A DNA stretch of 64,000 nt from Mobula hypostoma (GCF_963921235.1 NC_086108.1:18972001-19036000); one strand, 5' to 3'; positions 2,828 through 47,554 are shown, counted from the stretch's first letter. Numbers and translations: made by a program. Notes: generated by a model from the sequence alone, not told the origin.

Positions 2828-3244
2828 GAGAAAGTTACAAGGAGATGATGAGAGGCATTGATCGTGTGGATAGTCAGAGGCTTTTCCCAGGGCTGAAATG
2901 GCTGCCACAAGAGGGCACAGGTTTAAGGTACACACATCAAAGTTGCTTGAATTTCCAGCATCTGCAGAATTCCTCGTGTTTACAGGTTTAAGGTGTTTGG
3001 GAGGAGGTACAGAGGAGATGTCAGGGGTAAGTTTTTTACGCAGAGAATGGTGAGTGCATGGAATGGGCTGCCGGCAACGGTGGTGGAGGCGGAAACGATA
3101 GGGTCTTTTAAGAGACTCCTGGATAGAGCTTAGAAAAATAGAGGGCTATGGGTAACCCTAGTAATTTCGAAGGTAGGGACATGTTCAGCTCAACTTTGTG
3201 GGCCGAAGGACCTGTATCGTGCTGTAAGTTTTCTATGTTTCTAT
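2828..3244 (+). mobile_element. CR1 LINE 3' fragment nested in an older CR1 3' fragment (~2740-3510)
   Basis: RT C-terminal RGH...F(T)QR...W pattern and TTCTATGTTTCTAT tail; near-identical to 44230-44570. Confidence 0.85.
2930..2981. mobile_element. 52-bp Penelope-like micro-insertion with internal inversion
   Basis: 13-bp TSD ACAGGTTTAAGGT (2917-2929 and 2982-2994); contains ACACACATCAAAGTTG fused to the reverse-oriented PLE terminus ...GAATTCCTCGTGTTT. Confidence 0.85.
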
Positions 3245-3559
3245 GAGATATGTGGGGTTGGTTTTATACAGAGAGGTGGATGTCTGGAAGGTGCCATGAG
3301 GGGCAGTGGTAGAAGCAGTTGTGGATGTGGCATTTAAGAGGCTGTTAGTATGACAGATGAACATGCAGAGAATGGGGATCGGGGTGGTGGAGAGACATAG
3401 ATCAGGCACTGTTCATGCAGAAAAGACTTACTTTAATTTGTTATCATGTTCAGTGCCCACATTGTGGGCTAAAGGACATGTTCCTGTGCGATGTTCTACG
3501 TTCTATGTAACTAAGCCCTGTTCACAATATCTATCACCAAAAACATGACTTTGTGAAAA

Positions 3560-3990
3560 AAGAACCTGTATTTGTAGGACACTTTTCAGCATCTCAGAAA
3601 ATAGATCGTAGCCATTAAATTAGTAACTGCATGGCAACCAACTTGCCCATGCTGGCAACAAGACAGTAAGCAGAAAAAGCACAGTAGCAATGAATGATCA
3701 AGAAAGTATATTGGAAAGCACAAAAAGAAATTCCTTCAGTTACCTTCAACTGATTGAATCCACAGGTCATCATTAATGGTCTGTGTGGACTCATTGAATC
3801 AAAGGGCCTGTTTCTGTGCTGTAGCTCTTTATGACTCAATGATACCTCATCGAAAACAGCACTGTTGACACTGCCGCACTCTGGTATCACTGCACTAGTT
3901 GTTCATATTGATTAAATGTCCCAAATATAGGGTGGGATTTGAAGCTGCAATCTTCTATCTCACAGACAACAGCACAGCTATACCAGTTAC
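3560..3990 (-). mobile_element. Ancient tRNA-derived SINE remnant (DeuSINE-like)
   Basis: Reverse B-box GGGATTTGAAGC near 3935 and a CACTGCACTAG motif recalled from the Deu domain; highly diverged. Confidence 0.35.
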
Positions 3991-4509
3991 CAGTTCCAGC
4001 CCTCCAAGAAGGCCCAAGAGTATTAAACCACTTGCATAACCTGTTTATCCATAGGACGCGCGCCCCCCCGCCCAACCCTCCAAGAGCTATCTATTAAGAT
4101 GCCTTTGCCTGTGGGTTATATTGATTCAGACTGGTCCTCTTAAGACAGGCTTCTCCCTACCCCTATGCCACAACCCACCAAGCAGCTTATCATCCACCCT
4201 AGACTCTGACCTTGCCTCAACCACCAATTTGTCAACTACTCCTGCCTACAACAGCTTGATTCCAAATCCAAGCCTCTGACAACCATTTAGCTGTCAAACT
4301 TAGGGGCTTTCAGACATATATTAAATTAAAAGTAATTTAATATGAATTCTTTGTGTTGGCAATACTGGGAAAAGTGCATATGACAATCTTGACAAAATGG
4401 GTCCGGACAAATGATCCATCAGAACATTATCTGTAAAAGACTGAAGTCTCCAGTATTAGACTGCCATCATGCATGTATCATCGGCTGTTTCAGAAGTGCA
4501 TATATTTCA

Positions 4510-4868
4510 CGACTGCAAGGCCTCTTCCAGGGATGCCTACAATGAAGAAGATGAAATCTTCTCTTCAATGGGAGTTTAGTGAAACCCTCCCTCACTGCTC
4601 CCTATCTGTAATTTCTTCGGCCCTTCAACTTTTCGACCACACGCTCACCCAGACCCGCTACTAAAGCCATATATCATTATTTCGGGTCTCCCCCTCCCCG
4701 TCCCTCTGACTATCGCTTTTTTCTGTTAGTCCTGACGAAGGGTCTCGACCCGAAACGTCGACTGTACTTCTTCCCAAAAAATGCTGCCTGGCCTGCTGCG
4801 TTCCACCAGCACTTTGTGTGTGTTGCTTGAATTCCCAGCATCTGCAGATTTTCTCATGTTTGTGTTTT
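4510..4868 (+). mobile_element. Penelope-like element fragment (pLTR with hammerhead; possible ORF N-terminal remnant upstream)
   Basis: 4720-4861 matches the termini of the GIY-YIG-containing insertions at 24838 and 45431; left boundary uncertain. Confidence 0.75.
4728..4763 (+). ncRNA. Minimal type I hammerhead ribozyme (motif intact)
   Basis: AGUC-CUGACGA-A-GGGU(CUCG)ACCC-GAAAC-GUC-GACU: stem I AGUC/GACU, core CUGANGA and GAAA, 4-bp stem II, palindromic ACGU stem III, GUC cleavage triplet. Confidence 0.85.
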
Positions 4869-5145
4869 TGGAGCCAGTTTTGCTCATGAGAACAGTCAGA
4901 AGAATGGGAGTGAATTGGTAGCACATGGGAAATTGAAAATTTGGCTCACCTGGAGCTTGCTAGTTAGCCATTAAGTAACAGCAGTACTTATGGTTGGCAA
5001 AAGGATCTTCACTAGTCTACAGGCAAAACAGATTCTATCAACAGCCACTTGTTTTCAGTAAGAGCCTAACAACCAGTCACCTAATTTCCAATACCATACA
5101 CTGTTATTGAATGATGATGACCCTGACCCAACAGTCTACCATTTA

Positions 5146-8100
5146 TAGAACATAGAACATAGAATCATACAGCACAGTACAGGCCCTTCGGCCCACAATG
5201 TTGTGCCGACCCTCAAACCCTGCCTCCCATATAAGCCCCCAACTTAAATTCCTCCATATACCTGTCTAGTAGTCTCTTAAACTTCACGAGTATATCTGCC
5301 TCCACCACTGACTCAGGCAGTGCATTCCACACACCAACCACTCTCTCAGTAAAAAACCTCCCTCTAATATCCCCCTTGAACTTCCCACCCCTTACCTTAA
5401 AGCCATGTCCTCTTGTATTGAGCAGTGGTGGCCTGGGGAAGAGGCGCTGGCTATCCACTCTATCTATTTCTCTTATTATCTTGTACACCTCTATCATGTC
5501 TCCTCTCATCCTTCTTCTCTCCAAAGAGTAAAGCGCTAGCTCCCTTAATCTCTGATCGTACTGCATACTTTCTAAACCAGGCAGCATCCTGGTAAATGTC
5601 CTCTGTACCCTTTCCAATGCTTCCCACATCCTTCCTATAGTGAGGTGACCAGAACTGGACACAGTACTCCAAGTGTGGCCTAACCAGAGTTTTATAGAGC
5701 TGCATCATTACATCGCGACTCTTAAACTCTATCCCTCGACTTATGAAAGCTTTCATAAGCTTTCTTAACTACCCTATCTACCTGTGAGGCAGCTTTCAGA
5801 GATCTGTGGACATGTACCCCCAGATCCCTCTGCTCCTCCACACTACCAAGTATCCTGCCATTTACTTTGTACTCTTCCTTGGAGTTTGTCCTTCCAAAGT
5901 GTACCACCTCACACTTCTCTGGGTTGAACTCCATCTGCCACTTCTCAGCCCACTCCTGCATCCTATCAATGTCTCTCTGCAATCTTTGACAATCTTCTAG
6001 ACTATCTACAACACCACCAACCTTTGTGTCGTTTGCAAACTTGCCAACCCACCCTTCTACCCCCACATCCAGGTCGTTAATAAAAATCACGAAAAGTAGA
6101 GGTCCCAGAACAGATCTTTGTGGAATACCACTAGTCACAATCCTCCAATCTGAATGTACTCACTCCACCACCACCCTCTGCCTTCTGCAGGCAAGCCAAT
6201 TCTGAATCCACCTGGCCAAACTTCCCTGGATCCCATGCCTTCTATCTTTCTGAATAAGCCTACCGTGTGGAACCTTGTCAAATGCCTTACTAAAATCCAT
6301 ATAGATCACATCCACTACACTACCCTCATCTATATGCCTGGTCACCTCCTCAAAGAACTCTATCAGGCTTGTTAGACACAATCTGCCCTTCACAAAGCCA
6401 TACTGACTGTCCCTGATCAGACCATGATTCTCTAAATGCCTATAGGTCCTATCTCTAAGAATCTTTTCCAACAGTTTTCCCACCACATTATAGACCATCA
6501 CTGGTCTATAATTACATGGACTATCCCTACTACCTTTTTTGAACAAGGGGACAACATTCGCCTCCCTCCAATCCTCCAGTACCATTCCCGTGGACAACGA
6601 GGATATAAAGATCCTAGCCAGAGGCTCAGCAATCTCTTCTCTCGCCTCGTGGAGCAGCCTGGGGAATATTCCGTCAGGTCCCGGGGACTTATCTGTCCGA
6701 ATGTATTTTAACAACTCCAACACCTCCTCTCCCTTAATATCAACATGCTCCAGAACATCAACCTCACTTATTGTCCTCACCATCATCAAGTTCCCTCTCG
6801 TTGGTGAATACTGAAGAGAAGTATTCATTGAGGACCTCGCTCACTTCCACAGCCTCCAGGCACATCTTCCCACTTTTATCTCTAATCAGTCCTACCTTCA
6901 CTCCTGTCATCCTTTTTTTCTTAACATAATTGAAGAATGCCTTGGGGTTTTCCTTTACCCTACTCACCAAGGCCTTCTCATGTCCCCCGCTTGCTCTTCT
7001 CAGCCCCTTCTTAAGCTCCTTTCTTGCTTCCCTATATTCCTTAATAGACCCATCTGATCCTTGCTTCCTAATCCTCATGTATGCTGCCTTCTTCCACCTG
7101 ACTAGATTTTCCACCTCATTTGTCACCCATGGTTCCTTCACCCTACCATTTTTTATCTTCCTCACCAGGACAAATTTATCCCTAACATCCCAAAAGAGAT
7201 CTCTAAACATCAACCACATGTCCATAGTACATTTCCCTGCAAAAACATCATCCCAATTCACCCCCGCAAGTTCTAGCCTTATAGCCTCATAATTTGCCTT
7301 TCCCCAATTAAAAATTTTTCTGTCCTCTCTGATTCTATCCTTTTCCATGATAATGCTAAAGACCAGGGAGCGGTGGTCACTGTCCCCCAGATGCTCACCC
7401 ACTGAGAGATCTGCGACCTGACCCGGTTCATTACCTAGTACTAGATCTAGCATGGCATTCCCCCTGGTCGGCCTGTCCACATAATGTGACAGGAATCCAT
7501 CCTGGACACACTTAACAAACTCTGCCCCATCTAAACCCTTGGAACTAATCAGGTGCCAATCAATATTAGGGAAGTTAAAGTCACCCATGATAACAACCCT
7601 GTTATTTTTGCACCTTTCCAAAATCTGCCTCCCAATCTGCTCCTCTGTATCTCTGCTGCTACCAGGGGGCCTATAGAATAGCCCCAATAGAGTAACTGCT
7701 CCCTTCCTGTTCCTGACTTCCACCCATATTGACTCAAAAGAGGATCCTGCTACATTACCCACCCTTTCTGTAGCTGTAATAGTATCCCTGACCAGTAATG
7801 CCACCCCTCCTCCCCTTTTTCCACCCTCTCTATCCCTCTTAAAACACTGAAATCCAGGAATATTGAGAATCCATTCCTGCCCTGGTGCCAGCCAAGTCTC
7901 TGTAATGGCCACTACATCATAATTCCATGTATGTGTCCAAGCTCTGAGTTCATCACCTTTGTTCCTGATGCTTCTTGCATTGAGGTACACACATTTCAGC
8001 CCTTCTACCTTACTGTCTTTACTCCGTTTATTCTGCTTCTCTTTCCTCAAAGCCTCTCTATATGTTAGATCTGGCTTTACTCCATGCACTTCTTTCACTG

Positions 8101-11364: not shown

Positions 11365-11399
11365 AGAGAGCTCATTAAAGATGTGGGGCCAAAGGGCTG

Positions 11400-13860: not shown

Positions 13861-14223
13861 TTGAGAGATTTTACAGAATCAGGCAGCATGGAGGAGGTCT
13901 ATATCTCATAGTTGTCTATGAGTTAGGAAGAGGACATTTAGCCAGCTTTGACTATGGTAGCTCTTAGAATAACTTCTACCCTCCCACCTATGCACATACA
14001 CAGTTCTTTAATCCCAGGACAGGCCTGCAGTCTCCAGTTCCGATCAACTCAGGCCTACAGACATTAAGGCATCACCAGCAGGCTCATTGAGGTTTGCAGA
14101 TTCGAACATCCTAAGCTCTGATTTACAATATTTCAAGGTTCAAGATTTAAGTTTATTTGTCACGCATACATGGAAACATACAGTGAAATGTGTTGCTTGT
14201 GTTAGCAGTCAACACACCCGAGG

Positions 14224-15165
14224 ATGTGTTGGGGGGCAACTCACAGGTGTTGTTCTCGGTGTCGGATGTGGGAGGCCCCGGAGTCTCTAAGCCTCCCGGA
14301 CGTCTACATCTGCACCAAGTGCATCGAGATGCAGCTCCTAAGGGACCGCGTTACGGAACTGGAGCTGCAGCTCGATGACCTTTGTCTGGTCAGGGAGAGT
14401 GAGGAGTTGATAGAGAGGAGTTATAGGCAGGTGGTCACACCGGGGCCACAGGAGGCAGACAAGTGGGTCACGGTTAGGAGGGAGAAGGGGAAGGGTCAGG
14501 TAATAGAGAGTACCCCGGTAGCTGTGCCCCTTAGCAATAGGTACTCCTGTTTGAGTACTGTTGGGGGGGACAGCTTACCCGGGGGAAGCGACAGTGGCCA
14601 TGCCTCCGGTACAGAGTCCGGCCCTGTAGCTCAGAAGAGTAGGGAAAGGAAGAGGAGGGCAGTTGCGATAGGGGACTCGATAGTAAGGGGGTCAGATAGG
14701 CGATTCTGTGGACGCAGTCCAGAGACCCGGATGGTAGTTTGCCTCCCTGGTGCCAGGGTCCGGGATATTTCTGATCGTGTTCAAGATATCCTGAAGTGGG
14801 AGGGTGAGGAGCCAGAGGTCGTGGTACATATAGGTACCAATGACATAGGTAGGAAAAGGGAAGAGGTCCTGAAAGGAGAATATAGGGAGCTAGGAAGGGA
14901 GTTGAGAAAAAGGACCGCAAAGGTAGTAATCTCGGGATTACTGCCTGTGCCACGCGACAGTGAGAGTAGGAATGCGATGAGGTGGAGGATAAATGCGTGG
15001 CTGAGGGATTGGAGCAGGAGGGAGGGATTCAAGTTTTTGGATCATTGGGACCTCTTTTGGCGCAGGCGTGACCTGTACAAAAAGGACGGGTTACACTTGA
15101 ATCCTAGGGGGACCAATATCCTGGCAGGGAGATTAGCGAGGGCTACTGAGGTGACTTTAAACTAG
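14224..15165 (+). CDS. CR1 ORF1p: CxxC...CxxC finger, coiled coil, SGNH/GDSL esterase domain
   Basis: 313-aa open frame with IGDSIVRG, HIGTND and DGLH blocks; the first ~8 codons, including the ATG, come from flanking sequence. Confidence 0.85.
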   Translation: MCWGATHRCCSRCRMWEAPESLSLPDVYICTKCIEMQLLRDRVTELELQLDDLCLVRESEELIERSYRQVVTPGPQEADKWVTVRREKGKGQVIESTPVAVPLSNRYSCLSTVGGDSLPGGSDSGHASGTESGPVAQKSRERKRRAVAIGDSIVRGSDRRFCGRSPETRMVVCLPGARVRDISDRVQDILKWEGEEPEVVVHIGTNDIGRKREEVLKGEYRELGRELRKRTAKVVISGLLPVPRDSESRNAMRWRINAWLRDWSRREGFKFLDHWDLFWRRRDLYKKDGLHLNPRGTNILAGRLARATEVTLN

Positions 15166-24530: not shown

Positions 24531-24837
24531 TGGATAGCAAATTAAGGGTGTTTGCTTGCATGCCTTCATCTATGATCTCCAGCATTTCATTCACAGCCAG
24601 GGAGTTTGAAGTGCCCAAGGGTCGCTTTCCTCCAGAAACCTCCAGTACTTCTTATTGGACTTGATACACAATGCAGGACTGCATATGTGCTCCAGTTGTT
24701 ACTAAATCTACTTCCTCATACGTTTGGCCCCTCTCATTTATGAGATTATCATTCTAGCAGTATTTCTGACCACGATTTGGACTTGACCAGTGTACCTAAT
24801 GTCTCCCTTTAATCCTGTCTGAACTTCCACTTTTCCA

Positions 24838-32328: not shown

Positions 32329-32924
32329 TGATCTAAATTCCAGAAGTGTCCAGGATAGAGAACAACAATCTCTGTAAGAAGTTCTCACACAGCTCCACTT
32401 TCACGACCATCCTGTTACTTGTAACTATGTTCCCTCATTCAAGATCTCACTACAATCTACTGGACATTGAGAACATGGAGAGTAACACTGTTCCGTTTGG
32501 TCACATTCATGGGTATTTATGTATGGTTGAATGACAATTAAACTTAAACTTAAACTTGAAGAGGTTTCCACTAATATGAGATTCTGGGATATAAGGAAGC
32601 AGCTTCAGGAAAATGTGACATCCTGCTAAAACTGAAATGAGGAGAAATTTCTTTAGCCAACGTATGATGAATCTGTGGAATTCATTGCCGCATTTGGCTG
32701 TGAAAGCCAAGTCAGTGGGTGTATTTAAGACAGAGACTGATAAGGTTTTGAGTGGTAAAGGGGCTAAGGCTTATAAGGAAAAGGTGGTAGAATGGGGTTG
32801 CAAAAGTAAAAGTCAGTGTCAATTGAATGGCTGAGTCGATTCAATGAGAAAAATGGTATAATCTCACTCCTGTATCTTATGACCTAAGACTCTCCAGGAA
32901 ACAAAAGCAGATTTATTATTATAG

Positions 32925-34039: not shown

Positions 34040-36925
34040 GCCTAGTCCCACTGACCTGCACACGGACCATATCCCTCCATACACCTCCCATCCATGTATC
34101 TGTCCAATTTATTCTTAAATGTTAAAAAAGAACCCGCATTTACCACCTCGTCTGGCAGCTCATTCCATACTCCCACCACTCTCTGTGTGAAGAAACCCCT
34201 CCAATGTTCCCTTTAAACTTTTCCCCCCTCACCCTTAACCCATGTCCTCTGGTTTTTTTCTCCCCTTGCCTCAGTGGAAAAAGCCTGCTTGCATTCACTC
34301 TATCTATACCCATTATAATTTTATATACCTCTATCAAATCTCCCCTCATTCTTCTACGCTCCAGGGAATAAAGTCCTAACCTATTCAACCTTTCTCTGTA
34401 ACTGAGTTTCTCAAGTCCCGGCAACATCCTTGTAAACCTTCTCTGCACTCTTTCAACCTTATTTATATCCTTCCTGTAATTTGGTGACCAAAACTGAACA
34501 CAATACTCCAGATTTGGCCTCACCAATGCCTTATACAACCTCATCATAACATTCCAGCTCTTATACTCAATACTTTGATTAATAAAGGCCAATGTACCAA
34601 AAGCTCTCTTTACGACCCTATCTACCTGTGACGCCACTTTAGGGAATTTTGTATCTGTATTCCCAGATCCCTCTGTTCCACTGCACTCTTCAGTGCCTTA
34701 GCATTAACCCTGTATGTTCTACCTTGGTTTGTCCTTCCAACGTGCAATACCTCACACTTGTCAGTATTAAACACCATCTGCCATTTTTCAGCCCAGTTTT
34801 CCAGCTGGTCCAAGTCCCTCTGCAGGCTCTGAAAACCTTCCTCACTGTCTACTACACCTCCAATCTTTGTATCATCAGCAAATTTGCTGATCCAATTTAC
34901 CACATTATCATCCAGATCATTGATATAGATGACAAATAACAATGGACCCAGCACTGATCCCTGTGGCACACCATTAGTCACAGCCCTCCACTCGGAGAAG
35001 CAATTCTCTACTACCACTCTTTGGCTTCTTCCATTGAGCCAATGTCTAATCCAATTTACCACCTCTCCATGTATACCTAGCAACTGAATTTTCCTAACTA
35101 ACCTCCCATGCGGGACCTTGTCAAAGGCCTTACTGAAGTCCATGTAGACAATATCCACTGCCTTCCCTTCATCCACTTTCCTGGTAACCTCCTCGAAAAA
35201 CTCCAACAGATTGGTCAAACATGACCTACCACGCACAAAGCCATGTTGACTCTCCCTAATAAGTCCCTGTCTATCCAAATGCTTGTAGATTCTGTCTCTT
35301 AGTACTCCCTCCAATAACTTACCTACTACCGACGTTAAATTTATTGGCCTATAATTTCCCGGATTACTTTTCGATCCTTTTTTAAACAATGGAACAACAT
35401 GAGCCACTCTCCAATCCTCCGGCACCTCACCTGTAGACAGCGACATTTTAAATATTTCTGCCAGGGCCCCTGAAATTTCAACACTAGTCTCCTTCAAGGT
35501 CTGAGGGAACACCCTGTCAGGTCCCAGGGAGTTATCCACTTTAATTTTCCTCAAGACAGCAAGCACCTCCTCCTTTTCGATCTGTACAGTTTCCATGATC
35601 TCACTACTTGTTTCCCTTAATGCCATAGACTTCATGCCAGTTTCCTTAGTAAATACAGACACAAAAAACCTATTTAAGATCTTCCCCATTTCCTTTGGTT
35701 CCGCACACAGCCGACCACTCTGATCTTCAAGAGGACCAATTTTATCCCTTACAATCCTTTTGCTCTTAATATACCTGTAAAAGCTCTTTGGATTATCCTT
35801 CACTTTGACTGCCAAGGCAACCTCATGTCTTCTTTTAGCCCTCCTGATTTCTTTAAGTATTTTCTTGCACTTCTTATACTCCTCAAGCACCTTATTTACT
35901 CCCTGCTTCCTATATAGGTCATACAACTCCCTCTTCTTCTTTATCAGAGTTGCAATATCCCTTGAGAACCAAGGTTCCTTATTCCTATTCACTTTGCCTT
36001 TAATCCTGACAGGAACATACAAATTCTGCACTCTCAAAATTTCTCCTTTGAAGGTTTCCCACCTACCGATCACATCCTTGCCAGAGAACAACCTGTCCCA
36101 ATCCATGCTTTTTAGATCCTTTCTCATTTCTTCAAATTTGGCCTTCTTCCAGTTAAGAACCTCAACCCTGGGACCAGATCTATCTTTGTCCATGATCAAG
36201 TTGAAACTAATGGTGTTATGATCACTGGAGCCAAAGTGCTCCCCTACACAGACTTCCGTCACTTGTCCTAACTCGTTTCCTAACAGGAAATCCAATATTG
36301 CCTCCCCTCTAGTTGGTCCCTCTATATATTGATTTAGAAAACTTTCCTGAACACATTTTACAAACTCTAAACCATCTAGACCCCTAACAGTATGGGAGTC
36401 CCAATCAATATATGGAAAATTAAAATCCCCTACCACCACAACTTTATGTTTCCTGCAGTTGCCTGTTATCTCTCTGCAGATTTGCTCTTCCAATTCTCGT
36501 TGACTATTGGGTAGTCTGTAATACAATCCCACTAATGTGGCCATACCTTTCCTGTTTCTCAGCTCCACCCATAAGGACTCAGTAGACAAGCCCTCTAATC
36601 TGTCCTGCCTGAGCACTGCTGTAATATTTTCCCTAACAAGGAATGCTACTCCCCCACCTTTCATTCTTCTGCCTCGATCACATCTGAAACATCGGAACCC
36701 TAGAATATTAAGCTGCCAGTCCTGCCCCTCCTGTAGCAAGGTTTCACTAATTGCTATAACGTCATAATTCCATGTGTCAATCCACGCCCTCAACTCATCC
36801 GCCTTCCCCGCAATACTCCTAGTATTGAAATATATATACCTCAGAAGATTTTTACCACCACTCACAACCTTTCTATTAGCGGATTTGCTTGAACTTTTAA
36901 CATCATTTATTTTCACCCCAGCCAC
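34040..36925 (-). pseudogene. CR1 ORF2 (APE + RT), two late frameshifts
   Basis: 767-aa open frame through FADD; frameshifts near 34636 (KWRHR vs KVASQ) and near 34198. Confidence 0.93.
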
Positions 36926-36966
36926 ACTGTCAGCTCTGGCACTCTGGTTCCCATCCCCCTACAAAT

Positions 36967-37899
36967 CTAGTTTAAAGCCTCCCCAATAGCACTAACAAAC
37001 CTCCCTGAAAGGATATTGGTCCCCCTGTAGTTCAAGTGTAACCCGTCTCTCTTGTACAGGTCCCACCTGCCCCAGAAAAGGTCCCAATTATCCTGAAATC
37101 TGAAACCCTGCCCCCTACACCAGTCCCTCAGCCACTTGTTCATCCTCCAGAGCATCCTATTCCTACCCGCACTGGCATGTAGCACAGGTAGCAATCCTGA
37201 GATTACCACCCTCGAGGTCCTGCTTTTCAACTTCCTACCAAACTCTCTATACTCACTCTCCAGGACCTCCTCACTCTTCCTTGCTATGTCATTGGTACCG
37301 ATGTGCACCACGACATCTGGCTGATCACCCTCCCACTTCAGAATGTCATGCAATCGATCAGAGACATCCTTGATCCTGGCACCCGGGAGGCAACAAACCA
37401 TCCTGGATTCTCTGTCACGACCACAGAACCTCCTATCTGCACCTCTAACTATCGAGTCCCCAATCACTACCACTCTCCTCTTTTTTCCCCCTCCCTTCTG
37501 CACTGCAGAGCCAGACTCAGTGCCAGAGATCCAGCTACTGCAGCTTGTCCCAGGTAAGTCATCCCCCCCAACAGTATCCAATGCGGTATACTTGTTGTGA
37601 GGGTAATGGCCACAGGGGAACCCTGCTCTGCCTGCCCTTTCCTCTTCCCTCGCCTGACAGTGACCTGACAGTGTCCTCTGCTCCTTTGGCGTAACTACCT
37701 CCCTGTAGCTACTATCTATAATCTCCTCATTCTCCCGAATGATCCGCAGGTCATCCAGCTCCTGCTCCAGTTCCCTAACGCGGTTTGTTAGGAGCTGCAG
37801 CTGGATGCACTTCTTGCAGGTGTCGTTGTCAGGGACACCGGAGGGTTCCCTGACTTCCCACATCCTGCAAGAGGAGCATTCCAACATCCTGCCTGGCAT
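36967..37899 (-). CDS. CR1 ORF1p with Cys finger, coiled coil and SGNH esterase
   Basis: MPGRMLECSSC...CKKC, IGDSIVRG, HIGTND, DGLH; frame stays open but is locally shifted around 37595-37680. Confidence 0.85.
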   Translation of the reverse strand: MPGRMLECSSCRMWEVREPSGVPDNDTCKKCIQLQLLTNRVRELEQELDDLRIIRENEEIIDSSYREVVTPKEQRTLSGHCQAREEERAGRAGFPCGHYPHNKYTALDTVGGDDLPGTSCSSWISGTESGSAVQKGGGKKRRVVVIGDSIVRGADRRFCGRDRESRMVCCLPGARIKDVSDRLHDILKWEGDQPDVVVHIGTNDIARKSEEVLESEYREFGRKLKSRTSRVVISGLLPVLHASAGRNRMLWRMNKWLRDWCRGQGFRFQDNWDLFWGRWDLYKRDGLHLNYRGTNILSGRFVSAIGEALN

Positions 37900-40800
37900 T
37901 CTCTCTACTCTAAAACAATCTGAACAAAAAAAAAACTTACCAGAACCTACCCTGGCCTTTGCCTGTTCTCGCCAAAGCCTGTTAGAGCCAAAGCTGTCCC
38001 ACTCTGACACAGTCCACTCCGATGATGGCCGCTACAACGATGGCCACTGTATGTGGCGGTCTGCCTTTAAACCTTGGCGCGCTACGTCACGCAGTGCAGA
38101 CCCTTCTCCCCGAGCAGTGTTTAAAAAAAAAATGACTTTTTCTACCCGAGTTCTTCACTCCCTTCTCAGCTGCTTGCTTCATCTGAAACAAGAACCGTTG
38201 AAAATATTCTCTTTTTAAACCTTGGCGCTACATCACGCGCCTGCTCTAATTGCTTTACTCTTATGAAGCCCAGCTCTAGTGCCATATTTAAGTTTGCTGA
38301 GGATGCCACAGTTAATGGCCAAATCAAAAGTGGTGATGAATCAGCATACAGGAAGGAGAATGAAAACCTGGCTGAGTGTGGTGCTACAACAACAATCTCT
38401 CACTCAGTATCAGCAAGACCAAGGAGCTGATTATTGACTTCAGGAGGAGGAAACTGGAGGTTCAAGAGCCAGTCCTCATCAACAGATCAGGGTGGAGAAT
38501 GTCAGCAACTTTAAATTCCTCCGTATTATCATTTCGGAGGACCTGTCCTGCGCCCAGCACACAAGTGGAATTATGAAAAAAAAGCATGTCAGTACCTCTA
38601 TTTCCTTAGATGTTTTTCAAAGATTCAACAGGACACCTAATATTTGACAAACTACTATAGATGTGTGATGTAGAGTATATTGTCTGGTTGCACACAGCCT
38701 GATATGGAAACATCTATGTCCTTGAATGGGAAATCCTACAAAATGTAGTGGATATGGCCCAGACCATCATGGGTAAAGCCCTCACCACCATTAAGCATAT
38801 TTGCACGGAACGCTGTTGCAAGGAAGCAGCATCCATTATCAGGAACCTCCTCCACCCAGATCATTCTCTCTTCTCGCTGCTGCCATCAGGAAGAAGGTAC
38901 AGGAGCCTCAGGACTCACACCACCAGGTTCAGGAACAGTTATTACACCTCAGCCATCAGGTTCTTAAACCAGTGGGGATAACTTCACCTAACTTGACTTG
39001 CCTCACTACTGAACTGTTCCCACAACCTATTGACTCACTTTCAAGGACTCTTCATCTGATGTTCTCTATATTTATTGCTTATTTTCTTTTCTGTTTTGTA
39101 TTTACACAGTTTGTTGTTTTTTTTTGTACGTTGGTTGTTTGTCTGCCCTGTTGGATGCAGTCTTACATTGATCCTATTATGATCCTTGGATTTACTGAGT
39201 GTACCCGCTAGAAAACAAATCTCAGGATTGTATATGGTGAAATATATGCACTTTGATAATAAATTTACTTTGAATTTTGGTAGTACAGGAAAGATACTAG
39301 CAGGGATAGAAGAGCAACTGACTGGCAGGAGACAGAGTGGGAATAAAGGGGTCTTTTGTGGTTGGCTGTTGGTGACTAGTGTTGTTCTGCAGGTGTTATA
39401 CTGCTTCTTTTCACATAGTATGTCAGTAATTTGTTTTTGTAGCCAAGTTTGTGGATTATATGAATAGTTGGAAGGGCAGGTAGTGTTGAGGAAGCAGGGA
39501 GTCTGCAAAAGGACTTAGACAGATTAGGAGAATGGGCAAAGAAGTAGCAGATGGATTATAGTGTAGGAAGGTGTATGGCCATGCACTTTGGTAGAAGGAA
39601 TAAATGCATATATTATTTTCTAAAAGGGGACAATATTCAAAAATCAGAGGCACAAAGGGACTAGGAAGTCCTTGTACAGGATTCCCTAAAAGTTAATTTG
39701 CAGGTTGAGTCACTGATAAGGAAGGCAAATGCAATGTTAGCATTCATTTCGAGAGGACTAGAATATAAAAGGAAGGACATGATGCCAAGGCTTCATAAGG
39801 CATCATTCAGTCCACACTATTGTGAGCAGTTTTGGGCCCTTATCCAAAAAAAGATGTGCTAGCATTGGAGAAAGTCCAGAGGAGGTTCATGAGAATGATA
39901 CCCAGAGTGAAAGGGTAGTAGGAGTATTTGATGGCTTTGGGCCTGCACTCTCTAAGAGTTTAGAAGAATGAGGGGGAGATCACATTGAAACCTATCAAAT
40001 ATTGAAAGGCCTGGATAGAGTGGATGTGGAAAGGATGTTTCTTATAGAGGGTGATTCTAGGACCAGAGGGCACAGAATCTGAATAAAGGGACATCCATTT
40101 AGAACAGAGATGAGGAGGAATTTCTTTAGCCAGAAGGTGTGGAATTCATTGCCACAGGTTGCTGTGGAGGCCAGGTCATTGAGTATGTTTATAGCAGAGT
40201 TTGGCAGATTCTTGATTAGTCACGGTGTCAAAGGTTATGGAGAAAAGTCAAGAGAAAGGGGTTGAGAGGGACAGTAAATCAGTCATGATTGATTGGCAGA
40301 GCAGACCCGATGGGTCGAATGACCTAATTCCGCTCCTACGTCTTCTGGTCTTATATAATGTTGTTTGTTGTTTTGCGGCAGCAGTAATACAATGCAAAAC
40401 AGCAACTCTGCACTAGCAGAAATGTCCCAAAACCTATTTCCTCCTGGCCCCGTAAGGATCGCAAACTGCACAGAATAATGGTCTTATTAGTTTGGCCAAG
40501 AGTAACCCTTGTTCCAACTACTTTTGATGCCATTTACCTTGAGGCATGTATCAACACTACAGCATCTCCTACAGCAGTGAGGCTTGTTTCCCTTCTGGGA
40601 CTGATCAATTACAACTTGGTGCAAAGCCTGTTAAATGACTAAGAGCCTCGTTTCAACTCGGCACAGCCCCCACCCAGTTCCATGCTCCCTCTCACAGCTG
40701 TAGGAAGAGCTGCAGAACAACAGCAAGGTTGTCATGGAAATAATGAGGGGGTAGGGGATACAGCATAGGAGATATGACTTCAATGGGAAGGAGCAATGAA

Positions 40801-41487
40801 ATAGGGTGTGCTATCAGCTGCATAGTACACGAGAACATTCCCTCATTTTGTGATTCTTATTTTCCCAAAACTATCTGGCATGGAAGTTCTATTGTACACT
40901 GCCAAGGAACATGATGAAAAATCCCTACTCTATTTCTCACTGCATTGTTTGACATTGCACTAAATTTGTAGAACCATCATACGAGGCACTTAAGACTCTC
41001 AGTTACTTTGGCATCAGGTTGGGTGTAACACATAGTCAAAGTGCAATACAGCACAGAAACAGGCCACTTGGCCCACCAAATCTACACCAATAAGTGGGCA
41101 CCCATCCATATTAATCCCACCTTCCAGCACTTGGCTCATAGCATTCTATACCTAGGCAAATCAAATTTTCACCTAGACAATTTTAACTACTGTCAGTAAC
41201 TCAACTTCAACCAATCTCTCCAGCAGTGTGTTCCAGGTACTTATCACACTCTGTAAGAAAAAGATCTCCTCTAAATCTTTTACCCTTTACCCTAAATCTA
41301 TGGCCACGGTTTTATCTACCTCTGTTATGGAGAAAGGTTTCTGGCAGTCTGCACTATCAATTCTTCACATAATTTTATATATCTTAATCATGTCCCCTCA
41401 TATCCTCTTCTGCTTCAGGGAACAAACTTACCTACAGCAGCCTCTCTTCTTAATTGAAACTCTCCATCCCAGGCAACATCCTGGTGC

Positions 41488-43321
41488 TTGACTAATCTTC
41501 TGGAATTTTTTGAGGATGTAACTATGAAAATGGACAAGGGAGAGCCAGTGGATGTAGTGTACCTGGAATTGCAGAAAGTCTTTGATAAAGTCCCACATAG
41601 GAGATTAGTGGGCAAAATTAGAACACATGGTATTGGGGACAGGGTACTGACATGGATTGAAAATTGGCTGGCTGACAGAAAACAGAGTAGCGATTAACGG
41701 GTCCCTTTCGGAATAGCAGGCAGTGACCAGTGGGGTACCGCAGGGTTCAGTGCTGGGACCGCAGCTGTTTACAATATACATTAATGATTTAGATGAGGGA
41801 ATTAAAAGTAACATTGCAAATTTGCCGATGACACATAGAAACATAGAAAATAGGTGCAGGAGTAGGCCATTCGGCCCTTCAAGCCTGCACCACCATTCAG
41901 TATGATCATGGCTGATCATCCAACTCAGAACCCTGCACCAGCCTTCCCTCCATACCCCCTGATCCCTTTAGCCACAAGGGCCATATCTAACTCCCTCTTA
42001 AATATAGCCAATGAACTGGCCTCAACTGTTTCCTGTGGCAGAGAATTCCACAGATTCACCACTCTCTGTGTGAAGAAGTTTTTCCTCATCTCAGTCCTAA
42101 AAGGCTTCCCCTTTACCCTCAAACTGTGACCTCTCGTTCTGGACTTCCCCAACATCAGGAACAATCTTCCTGCATCTAGCCTGTCTAATCCCTTTAGGAT
42201 TTTATATGTTTCAATCAGATCCCCCCTCAATCTTCTGAATTCCAACGAGTATAAGCCTAGTTCATCCAGTCTTTCATCATATGAAAGTCCTGCCATCCCA
42301 GGAATCAATCTGGTGAACCTTCTTTGTACTCCCTCTATGACAAGGATGTCTTTCCTCAGATTAGGGGACCAACACTGCACACAATACTCCAGGTGTGGTC
42401 TTACCAAGGCCACAAAGCTGGGTGGCAGTGTGAAATGTGAGGAGGATGTTATGAGAATGCAGGGTGACTTGGACAGGCTGGGTGAGTGGGCAGATGTGTG
42501 GCAGATGCAGTTTAATGTGGATAAATGTGAGGTTATCCACTTTGGTGGTAAGAACGGGAAGGCAGATTATTATCTAAGTGGAGTCAAATTAGGAAAAGGG
42601 GAAGCACAACAAGATCTAGGTGTTCTTGTACATCAGTCACTGAAAGCAAGCATGCAAGTACAGCAGGCAGTGAAGAAAGTTCATGGCATGCTGGCCTTCA
42701 TAACAAGGGAAATTGAGTATAAGAGCAAAGACATCGTTCTGCAGCTGTACAGGGCCCTGGTGAGACCACACCTGGAGTACGGTGTGCAGTTTTGATCTCC
42801 AAATTTGAGGAAGGACATTCTTGCTATTGAGGGAGTGCAGCATAGGTTCACAAGGTTAATTCCCAAGATGGTGGGACGGTCATATGTTGAAAGATTGGAG
42901 CAACTGGGCTTGCATCCTCTGGAATTTAGAAGGCTGAGAGGGGATCTTATTGAAACATATAAGATTATTAAGGGATTGGACACACTGGAGGCAGGAAGCA
43001 TGTTCCCGCTGATGGGTGAGTCCAGAACCAGAGGCCACAGTTTAAGAATAAGGGGTAGGCCATTTAGAGCGGAGTTGAGGAAAACCTTGTTCACCCAAAG
43101 AGTGGTGGATATATGGAATGCTCTGCCCCAGAAGACTGTGGAGGCCAAGTCTCTTTCAACAAAGAGATGGATAGAGATCTTAAAGATAGCGGAATCAAAG
43201 GTTGTGGGGATAAGGCAGGAACTGGATACTGATTGTGGATGATCAGCCATGATCACAGTGAATGGCGGTGCTGGCTCGAAGGGCCGAATGGCGTACTCCT
43301 GCACCTATTGTCTATTGTCTA
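41488..43321 (+). mobile_element. CR1 RT 3' half, (CTATTGT)n-tailed, interrupted at KFADDT by an antisense CR1
   Basis: ORFs 41488-41697, 41723-41905, 42411-42795 and 42805-43242. Confidence 0.92.
41835..42410 (-). mobile_element. Young CR1 3' fragment (14246-18297 subfamily) inserted antisense into another CR1
   Basis: ORF 41925-42413 nearly identical to the C-terminus of 59509-60519; GATGACAC|...|CACAAAGCTG restores the host DDTKL, with a short CAC(A) duplication. Confidence 0.93.
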
Positions 43322-43402
43322 TTAAACCTCCAACACTATCTCATCAATCCTATAGTGGGGTGGTCAAAACTGCAGCCAATGTCTCACCAAAGTTTTACAA
43401 AC

Positions 43403-44571
43403 TTTTATTTCAGCAAGGCATTTGATAAGGTACCCCATGCAAGGCTTATTGAGAAAGTAAGGAGGCGTGGGATCCAAGCGAACATTGCTTTGTGGATCCA
43501 GAACTGGCTTGCCCACAGAAGGCAAAGAGTGGTTGTAGATGGTTCATATTCTGCATGAAGGCCGGTGACTAGTGGTGTGCCACAGAGATCTGTTCTGGGA
43601 CACCTTCTCTTTGTGATTTTTATAAATAACCTGGATGAGGAAGTGGAGGGATGGGTTAGTAAATTTGCTGATGACACAAAAGTTGGAAGTGTTGTGGATA
43701 GTGTGGAGGGCTGTCAGAGGTTACAGCGGGACATAGACAGGATGCAAAACTGGGCTGAGAAGTGGCAGATGGAGATCAACCCAGATAAGTGTGAGGTGGT
43801 TCATTTTGGTAGGTCAAATATGATGACAGAATATAGTATTAATGGCAAAACTCTTGACAGCGTGGAGGATCAGAGGGATTTTGGGGTCCGAGTCCATAGG
43901 ACACTCAAAGCTGATACGCAGGTTGACTCTGTGGTTAAGAAGGCATACGGTGCATTGGTCTTCATCAATCATGGGAGTGAGTTTAAGAGCTGAGAGGTAA
44001 TGTTGCAGCTATATAGAACCCTGGTCAGACCCCACTTGGAGTACTATGCTCAGTTCTGGTCACCTCACTACAGGAAGGATGTGGAAACCACAGAAAGGGT
44101 GCAGAGGAGATTTACAAGGATGTTGTCTGGATTGGGGAGCATGCCTTATGAGAATAGGTTGAGTGAACTCGGCCTTTTCTCCTTGGAGCAATGGAGGATG
44201 AGAGGTGACCTGATAGAGGTGTACAAGATAAGAAGAGGCATTAATCGAGTGGATAGTCAGACGCTTTTTCCCAGGGTTGAAATGTCTAGCACGAGAGGGC
44301 ATAGTTTTATAGTGCTTGGAAGCAGGTGCAGAGGAGATGTCAGGAGTAAGTTTTTTATGCAAGAGAGTGGTGAGTGCATGGAATGGGCTGCCAGCAGTGG
44401 CGGTGGAGGCGGATACAATAGGGTCTTTTAAGAGACTCCTGGATAGGAGCTTAGAAAAATAGAGGGCTATGGGTAACCCGAGGTAATTTCTAAGGTAAGG
44501 ACATGTTCAGCACAGCTTTGTGGGCCGAAGGGCCTATATTGTGCTGTAGGATTTCTATGTTTCTATGTTTC
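43403..44571 (+). mobile_element. CR1 RT 3' fragment
   Basis: [30 protein letters not shown]; (TTTCTATG)n tail. Confidence 0.93.
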
Positions 44572-45528
44572 TAAAGTTAGAGCATAACTTCCATCATTAT
44601 GCACAAATACATTCAATGTCCCTACTAATGAAAGTCGGCATCCCATATGCCTTCCCTGACCACGTTATCTACCTGCACTGTCACCTTCAAGGCTCTTTGG
44701 GCTTGTACGTATTTAGTGTTACAGGGGTGAACGGCTCAGGCCATCAAACAAGAGGCCATCACAAGATGGTATGCAAGACTTGAACGGGACCAATCTGGCC
44801 CAGGTGGTAGCCTTGGATATGAATCTTCCTTCAGCAATGTCTCCTTTAAGACTTATATTTGCTGCTTGTTCCTCTCTTCCCCTTTCCCCCCCTTCCCACC
44901 ACTGCCCCCATTTCTTCTTGCAATTGGTATCCTTCACTTCCCCACCACTGCACCCTGCACCATTTGTGACCCTGACTCAACCCACTAACAGAAACTCTGC
45001 TCCCAATTACAAACCCCTAGATCCCCACACTCCTGGAGTTGGCAGCCATTGTAGAAACATAACATTCTTCTTAAAAGCTGAAAGCAGGCTCACTCTCTTT
45101 CCATCTGGAGATTGTAAAGTACCGGAGCTTAGTGGGTTATTCATCCCTGACAAGTACATTGCAGACCTCAAGGACTGATACACCAGGGATCTGAGGACAT
45201 TCAACAAGGTGTGCATGGTTTCTTAAGAACTCCTGGAATATGAAGGGTTTCTGGTACTTTCATGTTGCACAGTACCACAGCTGATGGTTTTGCAGCCCCA
45301 CATCTCCAGCGAAGTGGTTCAATCCGAACCTCCAGTGCATGTTCTAGGATAACCATGTGGTTTTCCTTTTGTCACCTCCAACATTTCAAAGATCTGGAAG
45401 TTGGGTGGTTAATTGGTCACTGTAAAATGTAAACACAAGGAAATCTGCAGATGCTGGAATTTCAAGCAACACACATAAAAGTTGCTGGTGAACGCAACAG
45501 GTCAGGCAGCATCTCTAGGAAGAGGTAT

Positions 45529-45564
45529 AGTCGACGTTTCGGGCTGAGACCTTTCGTCAGGACT
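45529..45564 (-). ncRNA. Minimal type I hammerhead ribozyme (core intact, stem II weakened)
   Basis: Reverse complement AGUC-CUGACGA-A-AGGU(CUCA)GCCC-GAAAC-GUC-GACU. Confidence 0.7.
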
Positions 45565-46726
45565 AACTGAAGGAAGAGCGAGTAAGGGATTTGAAAGTTG
45601 GAGGGGGAGAGGGAGATCCAAAATGATAGGAGAAGATAGGAGGGGAGGGATGGAGCCAAGAGCTGGACAGGTGATAGGCAAAAGGGATAGGAGAGGATCA
45701 TGGGACAGGAGGTCCGGGAAGAAAGACAAGGGGGGGGGGACTCAGAGGATGGGCAAGGGGTATATACAGAGGGACAGAGGGAGAAAAAGGAGAGTGAGAG
45801 AAAGAATGTGTGTATAAAAATAAGTAACAGATGGGGTACGAGGGGGAGGTGGGGCATTAGCGGAAGTTAGAGAAGTTGATGTTCATGCCATCAGGTTGGA
45901 GGCTACCCAGACGGAATATAAGGTGTTGTTCCTCCAACCTGAGTGTGGCTTCACCTTTATAGTAGAGGAGGCCGTGGATAGACATATCAGAATGGGAATG
46001 GGATGTGGAATTAAAATGTGTGGCCACTGGGAGATCCTGCTTTCTCTGGCGGACAGAGAACATCTGCTCTCACTCCATCCTCCTGCCACTCCACTAGGAA
46101 TAGGGTTCCCCTTGTCCTCACCTACCACCCCACCAGCCTTCAGGTCCAACGTATAATTCTCCGTAACTTCCGCCACCTCCAACGGGATCCCACTACTAAG
46201 CACATCTTCCCCCCCCTCCCCCCCCCGCTTTCCGCAGGGATCGCTCCCTTCACAACTCCCTGGTCCATTCGTTTCCCCCGCCCCATCCCTCCCCATCGAT
46301 CTCCCTCCTGGCACTTATCCTTGTATGCAGAACAAGTGCTACACATGCCCTTACACTTCCTCCCTCACTACCATTCAGGGCACCAGACAGTCCTTCCAGG
46401 TGAGGCGATACTTCACCTGTGAGTCGGCTGGGAAGATATACTGCATCCAGTGCTCCCAATGCAGCTTTCTATATATTGGCGAGACCCGAGGCAGACTGGG
46501 AGATCGTTTCGCTGAACACATACACTCTGTCCTTACCCATCCTCTGGGCTTCCCCTGCCCTTGTCTTTCTCCCTAGGCCTTCTGTCCCATGATCCTCTCA
46601 TATCCCTTTTGCCAATCACCTGTCCAGCTCTTGGCTCCATCCCTCCACCTCCTGTCTTCTCCTATCATTTCGAATCTCCTCCTCCCCCTCCCACTTTCAA
46701 ATCTCTTAATAGCTCTTCTTTCACTT

Positions 46727-46762
46727 AGTCCTGACAAAGGGTCACGGCCCGAAACGTCGACT
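46727..46762 (+). ncRNA. Hammerhead ribozyme copy with mutated core (CUGACAA), probably inactive
   Basis: AGUC-CUGACAA-A-GGGU(CACG)GCCC-GAAAC-GUC-GACU. Confidence 0.65.
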
Positions 46763-47554
46763 GTACCTCTTCCTAGAGATGCTGCCTGACCTACTGCGTT
46801 CACCAACAACTTTTATGTGTATCACTGTAAAATGTCCCTAGTTTGGATCAGTGGTAGAATCAGTGGGCAGCTGCTTCTTGGAGAACAGTTCATGCTTCTG
46901 GGTTACAGGAAGATTCTCTGTCACTTCCAGATTCCCAACCTTACCACTTAGTTTTGTTTTTCTGCTTCTGCACACATGCAGTACCACGGAAATGTCTTGA
47001 TGGCTGCGTCCTCTGATCCCCTGACTTGGGACCTCGCTGCCTGCCACACCTGCCTCCAAGCTGGATAAGAATTCACTGCTGCTCAGTGCCCACACCATCC
47101 CACATCAACTCTACCTAGCCTTTAAAGTTATACCCTAACCTCCCCATTCCCTGGCAATCTTCCAGAATGTATATGCCACAATCATTGTTAACTTACATGT
47201 GGACATAAGAAAATGGCAGCCAACACAATGTGCACACCCCTCCATTTTCTACACATCCATGTGCCTATCTAAGAAGTTTTTAAATGCCTCTACCATATTT
47301 GCTTCCACTACCACCCCAGGCAGTACATCCCAGGCACCCACCACTTACTGTATAAAAAAACTTGCCCCACATAATGCCTTTGAGCTTAGCTCCTCACACC
47401 TTATCTGCATACCCTCTAATATTAGACATTTTTATCCCGGGAGAAAGATACCAATTGTTTACTCATCTGTGCCTCCCATCTTATAAACTTCTTCCAGGTC
47501 TCCTCTCAGCCTCTGCTGTTCCGGAAAAACAACCCAAGTTGGTCCTACCTCTCT

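Follow-up and report, generated by a model that had tools for sequence, protein, structure and literature searches.

Known Insertions of Penelope-Like Elements

The transposition cycle of Penelope-like elements (PLEs) has so far been only partly worked out. Insertions with an inverted pLTR, a one-sided tail and a target site duplication (TSD) were described in 2013 (PMC3846280), and a general scheme has been drawn (PMC8557442, Fig. 2). In endonuclease-bearing (EN+) PLEs a tail of 30–40 bp is often confined to a single end and the whole unit lies inside one TSD (PMC3846280; PMC8557442). The tail of Pen2a_Av from Adineta vaga measures 31 bp (PMC3846280), and the repeat of Penelope from D. virilis measures 34–37 bp (PMC2377424). 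Self-priming or endonuclease resolution is the explanation given for this structure (PMC3846280; PMC8557442).

Biochemical data are available for PAc, the Poseidon element of Anolis carolinensis, for which in vitro target-primed reverse transcription (TPRT) is reported with cleavage and extension of both target strands (PMC11167929). According to the same report, reverse transcription has two neighbouring internal start sites in a stem-loop that follows a hammerhead, the tail is the sequence between them, a dimer is predicted, and the two strands show no apparent difference in start site. The main text of that paper does not discuss inverted insertions or TSDs, and it describes the PLE steps after RT initiation as still unvalidated. 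A comparable outcome is known from the twin priming of L1 (Ostertag and Kazazian 2001, as described in PMC2246262), where both sides of the break prime reverse transcription and an inversion results inside the TSD.

The insertion signature found in the ray is itself already published, and the ray copies are mostly an ordinary instance of it. As in Pen2a_Av and Pen2_Av of A. vaga and Penelope of D. virilis, an inverted 5'-truncated copy bounds the insert, the tail is one-sided and there is one TSD. The tail is 38–40 nt in all three two-armed inserts, which is inside the published range for EN+ PLEs. Unlike the A. vaga elements, which have TSDs of 8–10 bp, the ray inserts have TSDs of 13–14 bp, and they differ from both the A. 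vaga and the D. virilis elements in their host and in being short, down to 52 bp. The ray element also resembles PAc in having two likely priming positions that bound the tail near a hairpin after the hammerhead, a structural likeness based on the text of the PAc paper. Yet PAc belongs to the Poseidon clade without the CX2-5CxxC linker, whereas the ray element has the linker, and the start sites of PAc are AC-rich in the RNA, whereas the RNA at both ends of the ray element is GU-rich.

Three Inserts With Perfect Target Site Duplications

Three inserts are present in the window (the whole 64-kb stretch of DNA that was analysed): insert 1 at 2930–2981 (52 bp), insert 2 at 24838–25066 (229 bp) and insert 3 at 45431–46821 (1391 bp). 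The longest exact repeats flanking them are the following:

2917–2929, + strand: left TSD copy of insert 1, 13 nt, inside a CR1-like repeat
2982–2994, + strand: right TSD copy of insert 1
24825–24837, + strand: left TSD copy of insert 2, 13 nt
25067–25079, + strand: right TSD copy of insert 2
45417–45430, + strand: left TSD copy of insert 3, 14 nt
46822–46835, + strand: right TSD copy of insert 3

These recomputed repeats agree in full with the coordinates, lengths and perfect TSDs of 13, 13 and 14 bp given in the first-pass annotation. An exact repeat of at least 13 nt arose by chance in 82 of 200,000 trials with random window positions and ±3 nt of slack at both ends, a rate that is an upper bound as the real inserts were left in among the random positions.

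Insert 1 is located within a CR1-like repeat, and paralogues of this repeat without the insert could be identified. The closest (~44200–44460) has 88% identity over the right flank of insert 1 and differs from the insertion site by a single 63-nt gap, where 65 nt are expected (insert plus one TSD copy). Three remoter paralogues show gaps of 45–53 nt with less trustworthy edges. No paralogous empty site for insert 2 or insert 3 was found inside the 64-kb window, and no joint spanning insert 3 is seen among the 15 joints listed, beyond which there are 2,434 more. One X15 contig follows the left flank of insert 3 up to 45416 and then continues unaligned. The differing flanks, the differing internal junctions and the paralogue without insert 1 bear out the earlier proposal that the three insertions are independent, and the signature is confirmed as real.

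Identity of the Element

The three inserts are 5'-truncated insertions of a Penelope-like element. Judged from the encoded protein and its ray homologues, this element, which is abundant, is an EN+ PLE with a C-terminal GIY-YIG endonuclease. The window frame contains IYCIQCSQCSFLYIGET...R...EH followed by H...E...N in the C-terminal half, which are the motifs of GIY-YIG endonucleases. The Pfam GIY-YIG model matches the window frame with E 0.009 and four of six homologues with E 0.0005–0.002, all under the curated cut-off. The RT core is missing by truncation from every window copy, and homologues with 77–80% identity to the window piece have a YIDD-type motif upstream within the same protein. 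An RT that is N-terminal to the endonuclease in one ORF thus holds for the family, as read from these homologues. The 64-kb window contains no full-length copy, the form in which partial-tandem (direct) pLTRs would be seen.

Both the window and the homologues have a C-x4-C-x2-C linker ahead of the endonuclease. Neptune and Nematis have a CX2-5CxxC linker between RT and EN, which Penelope/Poseidon elements lack (PMC8557442). Since the linker is present, membership of the Penelope/Poseidon clade (PAc-type) can be discarded. The element is probably a Neptune, which is favoured over Nematis by the vertebrate distribution as described in a preprint (bioRxiv 10.64898/2026.07.22.740005).

A candidate hammerhead core was found by pattern on the pLTR sense strand in two copies and in mutated form in a third. 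Its conserved core boxes are accompanied by a 4-bp closing helix I, a helix II and a palindromic helix III of minimal size, as seen for the minimal hammerheads of PLE pLTRs (PMC4209133). Rfam reported no hammerhead at gathering or E-value thresholds and 0 gathering-score matches of any kind in the window, and with E up to 10 around two copies it gave unrelated chance matches only. Hammerhead cleavage was rejected as the origin of either end of the inserts: the presumed cut site lies 102 nt from the distal end and 62–64 nt from the inner ends, and at this distance it has no part in setting them. The sense of the element is known because the endonuclease frame and the hammerhead motif lie on one strand.

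Further copies of the family were sought in viral contigs (0, 5 and 0 loci with three patterns, and none of three protein-query candidates confirmed), metagenome contigs (6 loci) and prokaryote genomes (0 and 0). The 11 pattern loci in viral and metagenome contigs were discarded as chance matches: each aligns over 16–32 nt only, and no related protein is encoded at any of them.

Outer Ends of the Inserts

One end of each insert is the family terminus, and the opposite end is an inverted copy that begins 38–40 nt inside it; the description given in the first-pass annotation holds for all three. Any two of the three termini have 2–4 differences within their first 38 nt. The inverted end starts at position 39 of the terminus copy in insert 1, at position 40 in insert 2 (38–40 allowing a 2-nt overlap with the TSD) and at position 40–41 in insert 3, where one base is non-matching. 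Hence, 38–40 nt of tail are absent from the inverted arm. With a uniform spread over 60–3000 nt, three independent ends would fall inside a 3-nt span with p ~2e-3 to 8e-7, a value for n = 3 inserts selected for likeness to one another. The clustering of the inner end at 38–40 nt is that of three inserts of one window.

Three of the four tail-bearing copies in the window are two-armed. The remaining copy is:

4676–4861, + strand: fourth, more diverged family copy with pLTR end, hammerhead motif (core 4732–4759) and tail

This copy has no inverted arm, and no TSD was found within 2.5 kb upstream of it.

Contigs from 4 of 23 listed sequencing runs were aligned to insert 3. In each of the four runs, the six loose contig ends listed include the terminus at 45431 (520, 375, 446 and 381 contigs), and the contigs ending there continue into AT-rich unrelated flanks (agreement 0.40–0.42). 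The distal end is therefore fixed across many copies. Small shifts of its position, by a few nt, may occur: in 4/4 runs the loose contig letters outside 45431 have a consensus ending in CGC. The 24 loose ends listed, beyond which there are 6,886 more (two runs are saturated), do not include the inner end. Ends in that region are divided between two arms and several positions, so this absence speaks neither for nor against a fixed inner end.

Internal Structure of the Inserts

The inserts are composed of the following pieces:

2930–2947, − strand: inverted tail-less arm of insert 1, 18 nt, element sense on −, beginning at the inner site (position 39)
2942–2981, + strand: tail arm of insert 1, 40 nt, element sense on +, ending at the family terminus
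24838–24898, − strand: tail arm of insert 2, 61 nt, tail plus 23 nt of pLTR
24899–25041, − strand: internal piece of insert 2 from the endonuclease-coding region (~aa 250–300 of homologue P0002), oriented as the tail arm
25044–25066, + strand: inverted tail-less arm of insert 2, 23 nt
45431–46058, − strand: arm A of insert 3, 628 nt, with the C-terminal half of the GIY-YIG endonuclease, stop codon, 3' UTR, hammerhead motif, long hairpin and tail
46059–46532, + strand: middle segment M of insert 3, a decayed ORF covering the end of the RT region, the CX4CxxC linker and the N-terminal half of the GIY-YIG endonuclease
46531–46821, + strand: arm B of insert 3, 290 nt plus one base, a tail-less inverted pLTR with a mutated hammerhead core (46731–46758)

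The unit in insert 1 consists of the tail and 12 further nt only. Its arms are adjoining pieces of the element in opposite orientation, and 6 nt (2942–2947) are common to the end of the inverted arm and the tail arm. The turn between them falls in the hairpin stem, at a 6-nt inverted match. In insert 2, both arms stop at one and the same pLTR base and overlap on the element by 23 nt, and the internal piece between them is reached through a jump along the element. The junctions show little exact microhomology, with a filler of 2 nt (25042–25043) before the inverted arm that match neither side.

Arm A of insert 3 has its hammerhead core at 45560–45533 and its tail at 45431–45468. Segment M represents aa 151–305 of P0002. 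In the family it immediately precedes arm A, the two sharing 8 nt, whereas in insert 3 it is inverted. M and A are contiguous in the family, with the protein junction at aa 305. A joint of 46058 with 46524 on opposite strands was found in all four runs (3, 1, 1 and 3 contigs), and past 46058 the contigs of these runs carry unrearranged family sequence and not the junction of insert 3.

Arm B overlaps arm A on the element by 290 nt and has 88.6% identity to the matching part, the 290 aligned columns containing 31 substitutions and 2 gaps. Runs from two organisms contain the left as well as the right outer junction of insert 3, and the insert is therefore old enough for divergence in place. The arms differ at two sites where either allele is common in the family. 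Two RNA templates for A and B are a hint only, because the arms carry the same alleles at five other listed family-variable sites and the comparison drew on 40 of ~1,046 difference rows.

Probable Two-Ended Priming and Its Alternatives

All six ends of the three inserts represent a cDNA strand running on from a target 3' end. In each case the strand that continues the target 3' end is the complement of the sense RNA, from one of two positions 38–40 nt apart, which matches priming by both strands at two RNA sites. Two-ended TPRT is the best explanation for the three independent insertions, and we regard it as probable. The first-pass annotation had already proposed that both target strands prime at two RNA positions; the six ends fit this, but it is not new, as it has been seen in vitro for the anole PLE (PMC11167929).

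The GIY-YIG endonuclease would nick both strands 13–14 nt apart and leave 3' overhangs, as suggested by the TSDs; two-strand cleavage has been demonstrated in vitro in the anole work (PMC11167929). Each 3'-OH would then prime cDNA synthesis on the sense RNA, from an internal position close to the end of the pLTR. Folding predicts a long imperfect RNA hairpin; the tail-end site would lie immediately 3' of its base and the other site 38–40 nt upstream, at the 3' edge of the apical loop. Both cDNAs would extend inward, halt or jump at variable points and join via short sequence matches (6 nt long at the internal junction of insert 1 and 8 nt long at that of insert 3). Fill-in would complete an inverted-arm insert with a tail on one side and a TSD, an anatomy that is observed, while the order of events is our reconstruction. 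The adjoining arms of insert 1 could both come from one RNA. In inserts 2 and 3 the arms overlap by 23 and 290 nt, so this region would have been copied twice, with two RNAs, or else a tandem RNA that has two pLTR units, as the template.

The hairpin at the element end is weakly supported by folding. Both ends map to one predicted hairpin in the two copies that contain it whole, and the stability of the 85-nt end gave z −2.0 (11/300 shuffles as stable) and −1.2 (29/300), with z −1.6 to +0.3 for five other stretches. The pairing between primer and template at the six junctions is mixed and cannot be taken as an established feature of the inserts.

All three inserts fit the use of one site per strand. 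An obligatory inner site for one strand and outer site for the other is not established, because free choice gives this with p = 1/8 and there is no apparent strand difference in vitro. A wider rule can be offered only tentatively: PLE integration might be intrinsically two-ended and asymmetric, with a dimeric RNP that uses a single pLTR hairpin to prime one strand from its base and the other from its apical loop, at sites set by RNA structure and not by sequence, which is GU-rich in the ray and AC-rich in the anole element. Two RNA copies might be usable, the inner-site cDNA might be able to move over to the partner RNA and then cap the first cDNA, for which insert 3 would be an example, and the 52-bp insert might be the minimal single-RNA product. 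If true, one rule would take the place of the self-priming and endonuclease-resolution accounts of inverted pLTRs. In the literature searched we found no statement of an obligatory one-site-per-strand rule, of two templates per event or of a structure-set asymmetric rule; Arkhipova (2006), Evgen'ev and Arkhipova (2005) and Pyatkov (2004) were outside that search and may already state a one-site-per-end rule. The three inserts illustrate the question of two-ended priming without settling it. The ray family is very abundant, its TSDs are clean and its inserts can be as short as 52 bp, which makes it good material for a census that could separate two-ended priming from self-priming and endonuclease resolution and address asymmetric site use and the use of two RNAs.

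The earlier published model has a single strand priming at the tail end. The cDNA, or else an antisense template, would fold back and prime its own copying into the inverted arm, and resolution of the intermediate by the endonuclease would fix the tail-less end. Self-priming from palindromes at inverted junctions is argued for in the Discussion of PMC3846280, and the tail is held to come most likely from EN-mediated resolution (PMC8557442). The turn of insert 1 in a hairpin stem and the single pLTR base where both arms of insert 2 end would agree with this. However, the inverted arm of insert 1 is neighbouring sequence and no copy of the tail arm, and fold-back copying is therefore unable to make it. 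Likewise, segment M beside the turn of insert 3 is the RNA upstream of arm A and not a copy of it, and arms A and B differ at the two family-polymorphic sites. The two edges of the tail are moreover RT start sites in the in vitro assays reported for PAc (PMC11167929). Self-priming thus seems an unlikely source of the three inserts.

Ordinary twin priming of the L1 type would let the second target end anneal at any short match, so that the fixed position would reflect an easily paired, exposed U/G-rich loop and the selection of three alike cases. In the L1 process, the second priming site is as a rule variable and the arms non-overlapping. The interior of insert 3 does have the abutting-inversion geometry of that model (as described in PMC2246262), and its segments M and A, like the arms of insert 1, are adjoining RNA segments in opposite orientation. 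The target ends at the inner junctions also pair partially with the RNA just outside the start, over 2 nt exactly in insert 2 and over 5 nt with wobbles in insert 3, but the primer of insert 1 is mismatched at its last two bases. Unlike in L1, abutment is absent in insert 2, the second end is clustered (within 3 nt in 3/3 inserts) and the arms overlap in two of three inserts, whereas arms produced from a single RNA by twin priming are free of overlap. The one-sided tail of 30–40 bp is also recurrent across PLE clades, and ordinary twin priming appears quite unlikely. Of the view in the first-pass annotation that insertion is programmed and not random, the fixed outer ends stand, but the inner joints follow matches of 6 and 8 nt and insert 3 looks like L1 twin priming.

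Descent from a pre-rearranged master, or inverted arms made after insertion by recombination or gene conversion between separate copies, is very improbable: later conversion could have added to the divergence between arms A and B, but insert 3 is old enough to have diverged in place, every insert is enclosed by a single perfect TSD pair, and the contigs of 4/4 runs keep unrearranged family sequence past 46058. The single master, which the first-pass annotation had raised against its own proposal, is largely refuted, as the three internal junctions are all different.

Three Inserts of One Family End at a Fixed Terminus

Three inserts in the window belong to one Penelope-like element (PLE) family:

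2930–2981, insert 1, 52 bp
24838–25066, insert 2, 229 bp
45431–46821, insert 3, 1391 bp

The inserts are flanked by exact repeats of 13, 13 and 14 nt, in agreement with the perfect target site duplications (TSDs) reported in the first-pass annotation. Flanking repeats of such length arose by chance at 82 of 200,000 random window positions with a slack of ±3 nt, which is an upper bound. The fixed end and the inverted second end claimed earlier were also found. One end of every insert coincides with the family terminus (distal end), and the inverted arm starts at terminus-copy position 39, 40 or 40–41 (inserts 1, 2 and 3; inner end), leaving out the terminal 38–40 nt, or tail. The first 38 nt of the terminus differ at 2–4 positions among the inserts.

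Insert 1 splits a repeat that we take to be CR1-like. The nearest window paralogue spans the site with a single 63-nt gap (65 expected), and three remoter paralogues have gaps of 45–53 nt with rough edges. Searches of the window found neither tail/tail nor tail-less/tail-less pairs. A fourth family copy (4676–4861) has the terminus but neither an inverted arm nor, within 2.5 kb, a TSD; it is more diverged and carries the hammerhead and tail. Older, remoter PLE-end fragments lie at 18505–18595, 58921–58949 and 62227–62284 (68–83% identity to the family end).

Identity of the Element

The ORF end in insert 3 is decayed: the + strand carries a C-x4-C-x2-C linker followed by IYCIQCSQCSFLYIGET and the R/E/H segment, and the − strand carries the C-terminal nuclease half and the stop codon. 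The Pfam GIY-YIG match to a window ORF was weak (E 0.009, below cut-off). A protein search gave 10 matches among 24 candidates, nine of the matches being assigned by name to Hypanus sabinus or Mobula hypostoma, and the best homologues (77–80% identity) have a YIDD-type RT motif upstream. Judged by its linker/nuclease ORF and by these ray homologues with the upstream RT motif, the element is a C-terminal EN+ PLE of a ray-like genome. According to PMC8557442, the linker motif rules out Penelope/Poseidon and agrees with a candidate placement in Neptune or Nematis. A minimal hammerhead core, not detected by Rfam, lies in the pLTR on the same strand as the ORF; minimal hammerheads are a motif class of PLE pLTRs (PMC4209133).

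Contigs from four sequencing runs aligned to insert 3 with summed depths of up to millions, against 0–181 in flanking bins; summed depth is not copy number, and it falls in part of the bins for the two remoter runs. In each of the four organisms the element is thus a highly abundant repeat. Its ORF also lies inside ray gene models for mucin-2, divergent protein kinase domain 1C and chitinase domain-containing protein 1 (proteins P0004, P0005 and P0007), which are probably annotation artefacts or exonised repeats.

Internal Anatomy of the Inserts

The arms of inserts 1 and 3 are as follows:

2942–2981, tail arm of insert 1
2930–2947, inverted arm of insert 1, 18 nt
45431–46058 (−), arm A of insert 3, 628 nt, tail into nuclease
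46059–46532 (+), middle segment M of insert 3
46531–46821 (+), arm B of insert 3, tail-less, 290 nt

The two arms of insert 1 are adjoining pieces of the element RNA, and an inverted match of 6 nt that they share forms the stem of a small hairpin. From its 61-nt tail arm, insert 2 jumps to a nuclease-coding piece of 143 nt with unchanged orientation; 2 filler nt and an inverted arm of 23 nt follow, and the same pLTR base ends both arms. The jumps at 24899 (insert 2) and 46532 (insert 3) land no more than about 16 nt apart in the nuclease-coding region. These near-coincident sites, and the common arm stop in insert 2, may reflect chance or local similarity.

In the family, M lies immediately upstream of A: the two abut at aa 305 of the homologue, and in all four runs contigs link 46058 with 46524, on opposite strands. 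Insert 3 has M inverted, after B on the second strand. This interior has the geometry of twin priming, the model described in PMC2246262, with a pLTR arm in front. A microhomology switch is possible, since an 8-mer of the M/A overlap recurs in the 3′ UTR, 15 nt past the end of B. Arms A and B are 88.6% identical, which agrees with the presence of both outer junctions in runs of two organisms (X1 possibly being the window's own source). Among the 40 difference rows listed, of about 1,046, the arms differ at two sites, 45572/46719 and 45599/46692, and agree at five other variable sites. Both alleles are common in the family at the two discordant sites, where arm B has the allele dominant in run X15, a hint that two related templates were used.

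Many Copies Share the Distal End

Six loose ends, where contigs leave insert 3, were listed for each of four runs (of 23 listed). Position 45431 was among them in all four (520, 375, 446 and 381 contigs), with contigs entering unrelated AT-rich DNA (agreement 0.40–0.42), and at the remaining listed ends they run into element-like sequence. The distal end is thus fixed in many copies. The inner end was not among the 24 rows listed (6,886 more rows were unlisted, and X1 and X5 were saturated), so that its fixed position is based on the three inserts.

The loose consensus at 45431 finishes in CGC in four of four runs: either some copies are about 3 nt longer, or there is a preference for targets able to pair with the RNA. 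Bases immediately past the terminus of the copy at 4676–4861 resemble these few extra letters. The target ends that would act as primers at the tail site in inserts 1 and 3, 2992–2982 (−) and 45417–45430, finish in TGT, which could wobble-pair with the three bases that CGC implies in the RNA; insert 2 does not fit. Short primer–template pairing at the tail site is possible on this reading.

Probable Priming at Two Sites on Two Strands

At all six insert ends, the strand continuing from the target 3′ end reads as cDNA of the sense RNA. Priming on two strands at two sites is the simplest account of the three inserts and a probable one. Staggered nicks 13–14 nt apart would provide two 3′ overhangs, both of which would prime at internal RNA sites; synthesis would proceed inward for variable lengths, and the cDNAs would be joined through short matches. 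In weakly supported folding predictions (z −2.0 and −1.2), the RNA forms a long, imperfect hairpin whose base lies 9 nt 5′ of the distal end and whose apical loop has the inner end at its 3′ edge, so that the tail would be the hairpin's 3′ arm. All three two-armed inserts pair tail with no tail (p = 1/8 if strands choose their site freely). Obligatory asymmetry with two templates agrees with these data as a tentative candidate reading. What the inserts show is their anatomy, TSDs, independence and fixed distal end; how the nicks lie, the priming, the part played by the hairpin and the template number are inferred.

Self-priming, proposed in PMC3846280, with resolution by the endonuclease seems unlikely, as it leaves unexplained both segment M of insert 3 and the arms of insert 1, which are not duplicates. 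Ordinary twin priming at an exposed loop we also consider improbable. A master element or later recombination can hardly be the source. No two inserts have like internal junctions, which supports the independence claimed for them, and they therefore have no common rearranged master.

Comparison With Published Systems

PMC3846280 describes inserts completed by an inverted pLTR, with an optional 31-bp tail at one inverted pLTR and TSDs of 8–10 bp, shorter than the 13–14 nt seen here; PLEs in general have an inverted copy and a tail of 30–40 bp that is often confined to one end (PMC8557442); and D. virilis has inverted terminal repeats plus a 34–37 bp repeat (PMC2377424). PMC11167929 reports that a PLE protein, predicted to form a dimer, cleaves and extends both strands, with RT starts at two neighbouring internal positions that delimit the tail and no strand difference apparent there. 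The programmed two-primer mechanism, put forward in the first-pass annotation over random twin priming, agrees with the sense-RNA reading of all six ends; for the most part it combines results already in print. An explicit statement that one strand per site builds inverted inserts was not found in the literature searched, which did not reach several older papers. In this ray-like genome the three inserts give a real, clean example of an integration signature known for PLEs.

Other Repeats in the Window

Long dispersed repeats with ORFs of 200–778 aa lie at about 5141–7871, 14200–18300, 29591–32338, 34100–38000, 41400–44450, 47680–49200 and 59400–62150. Some pairs are 94–98% identical, and the repeats are probably CR1-like LINEs of several subfamilies. 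Two close inverted LINE-like pairs, 42017–42411/42753–43147 (78% complementary, 341 nt apart) and 32978–33237/33969–34228 (93%, 731 nt apart), are possibly 5′-inverted insertions or adjoining opposite ones.
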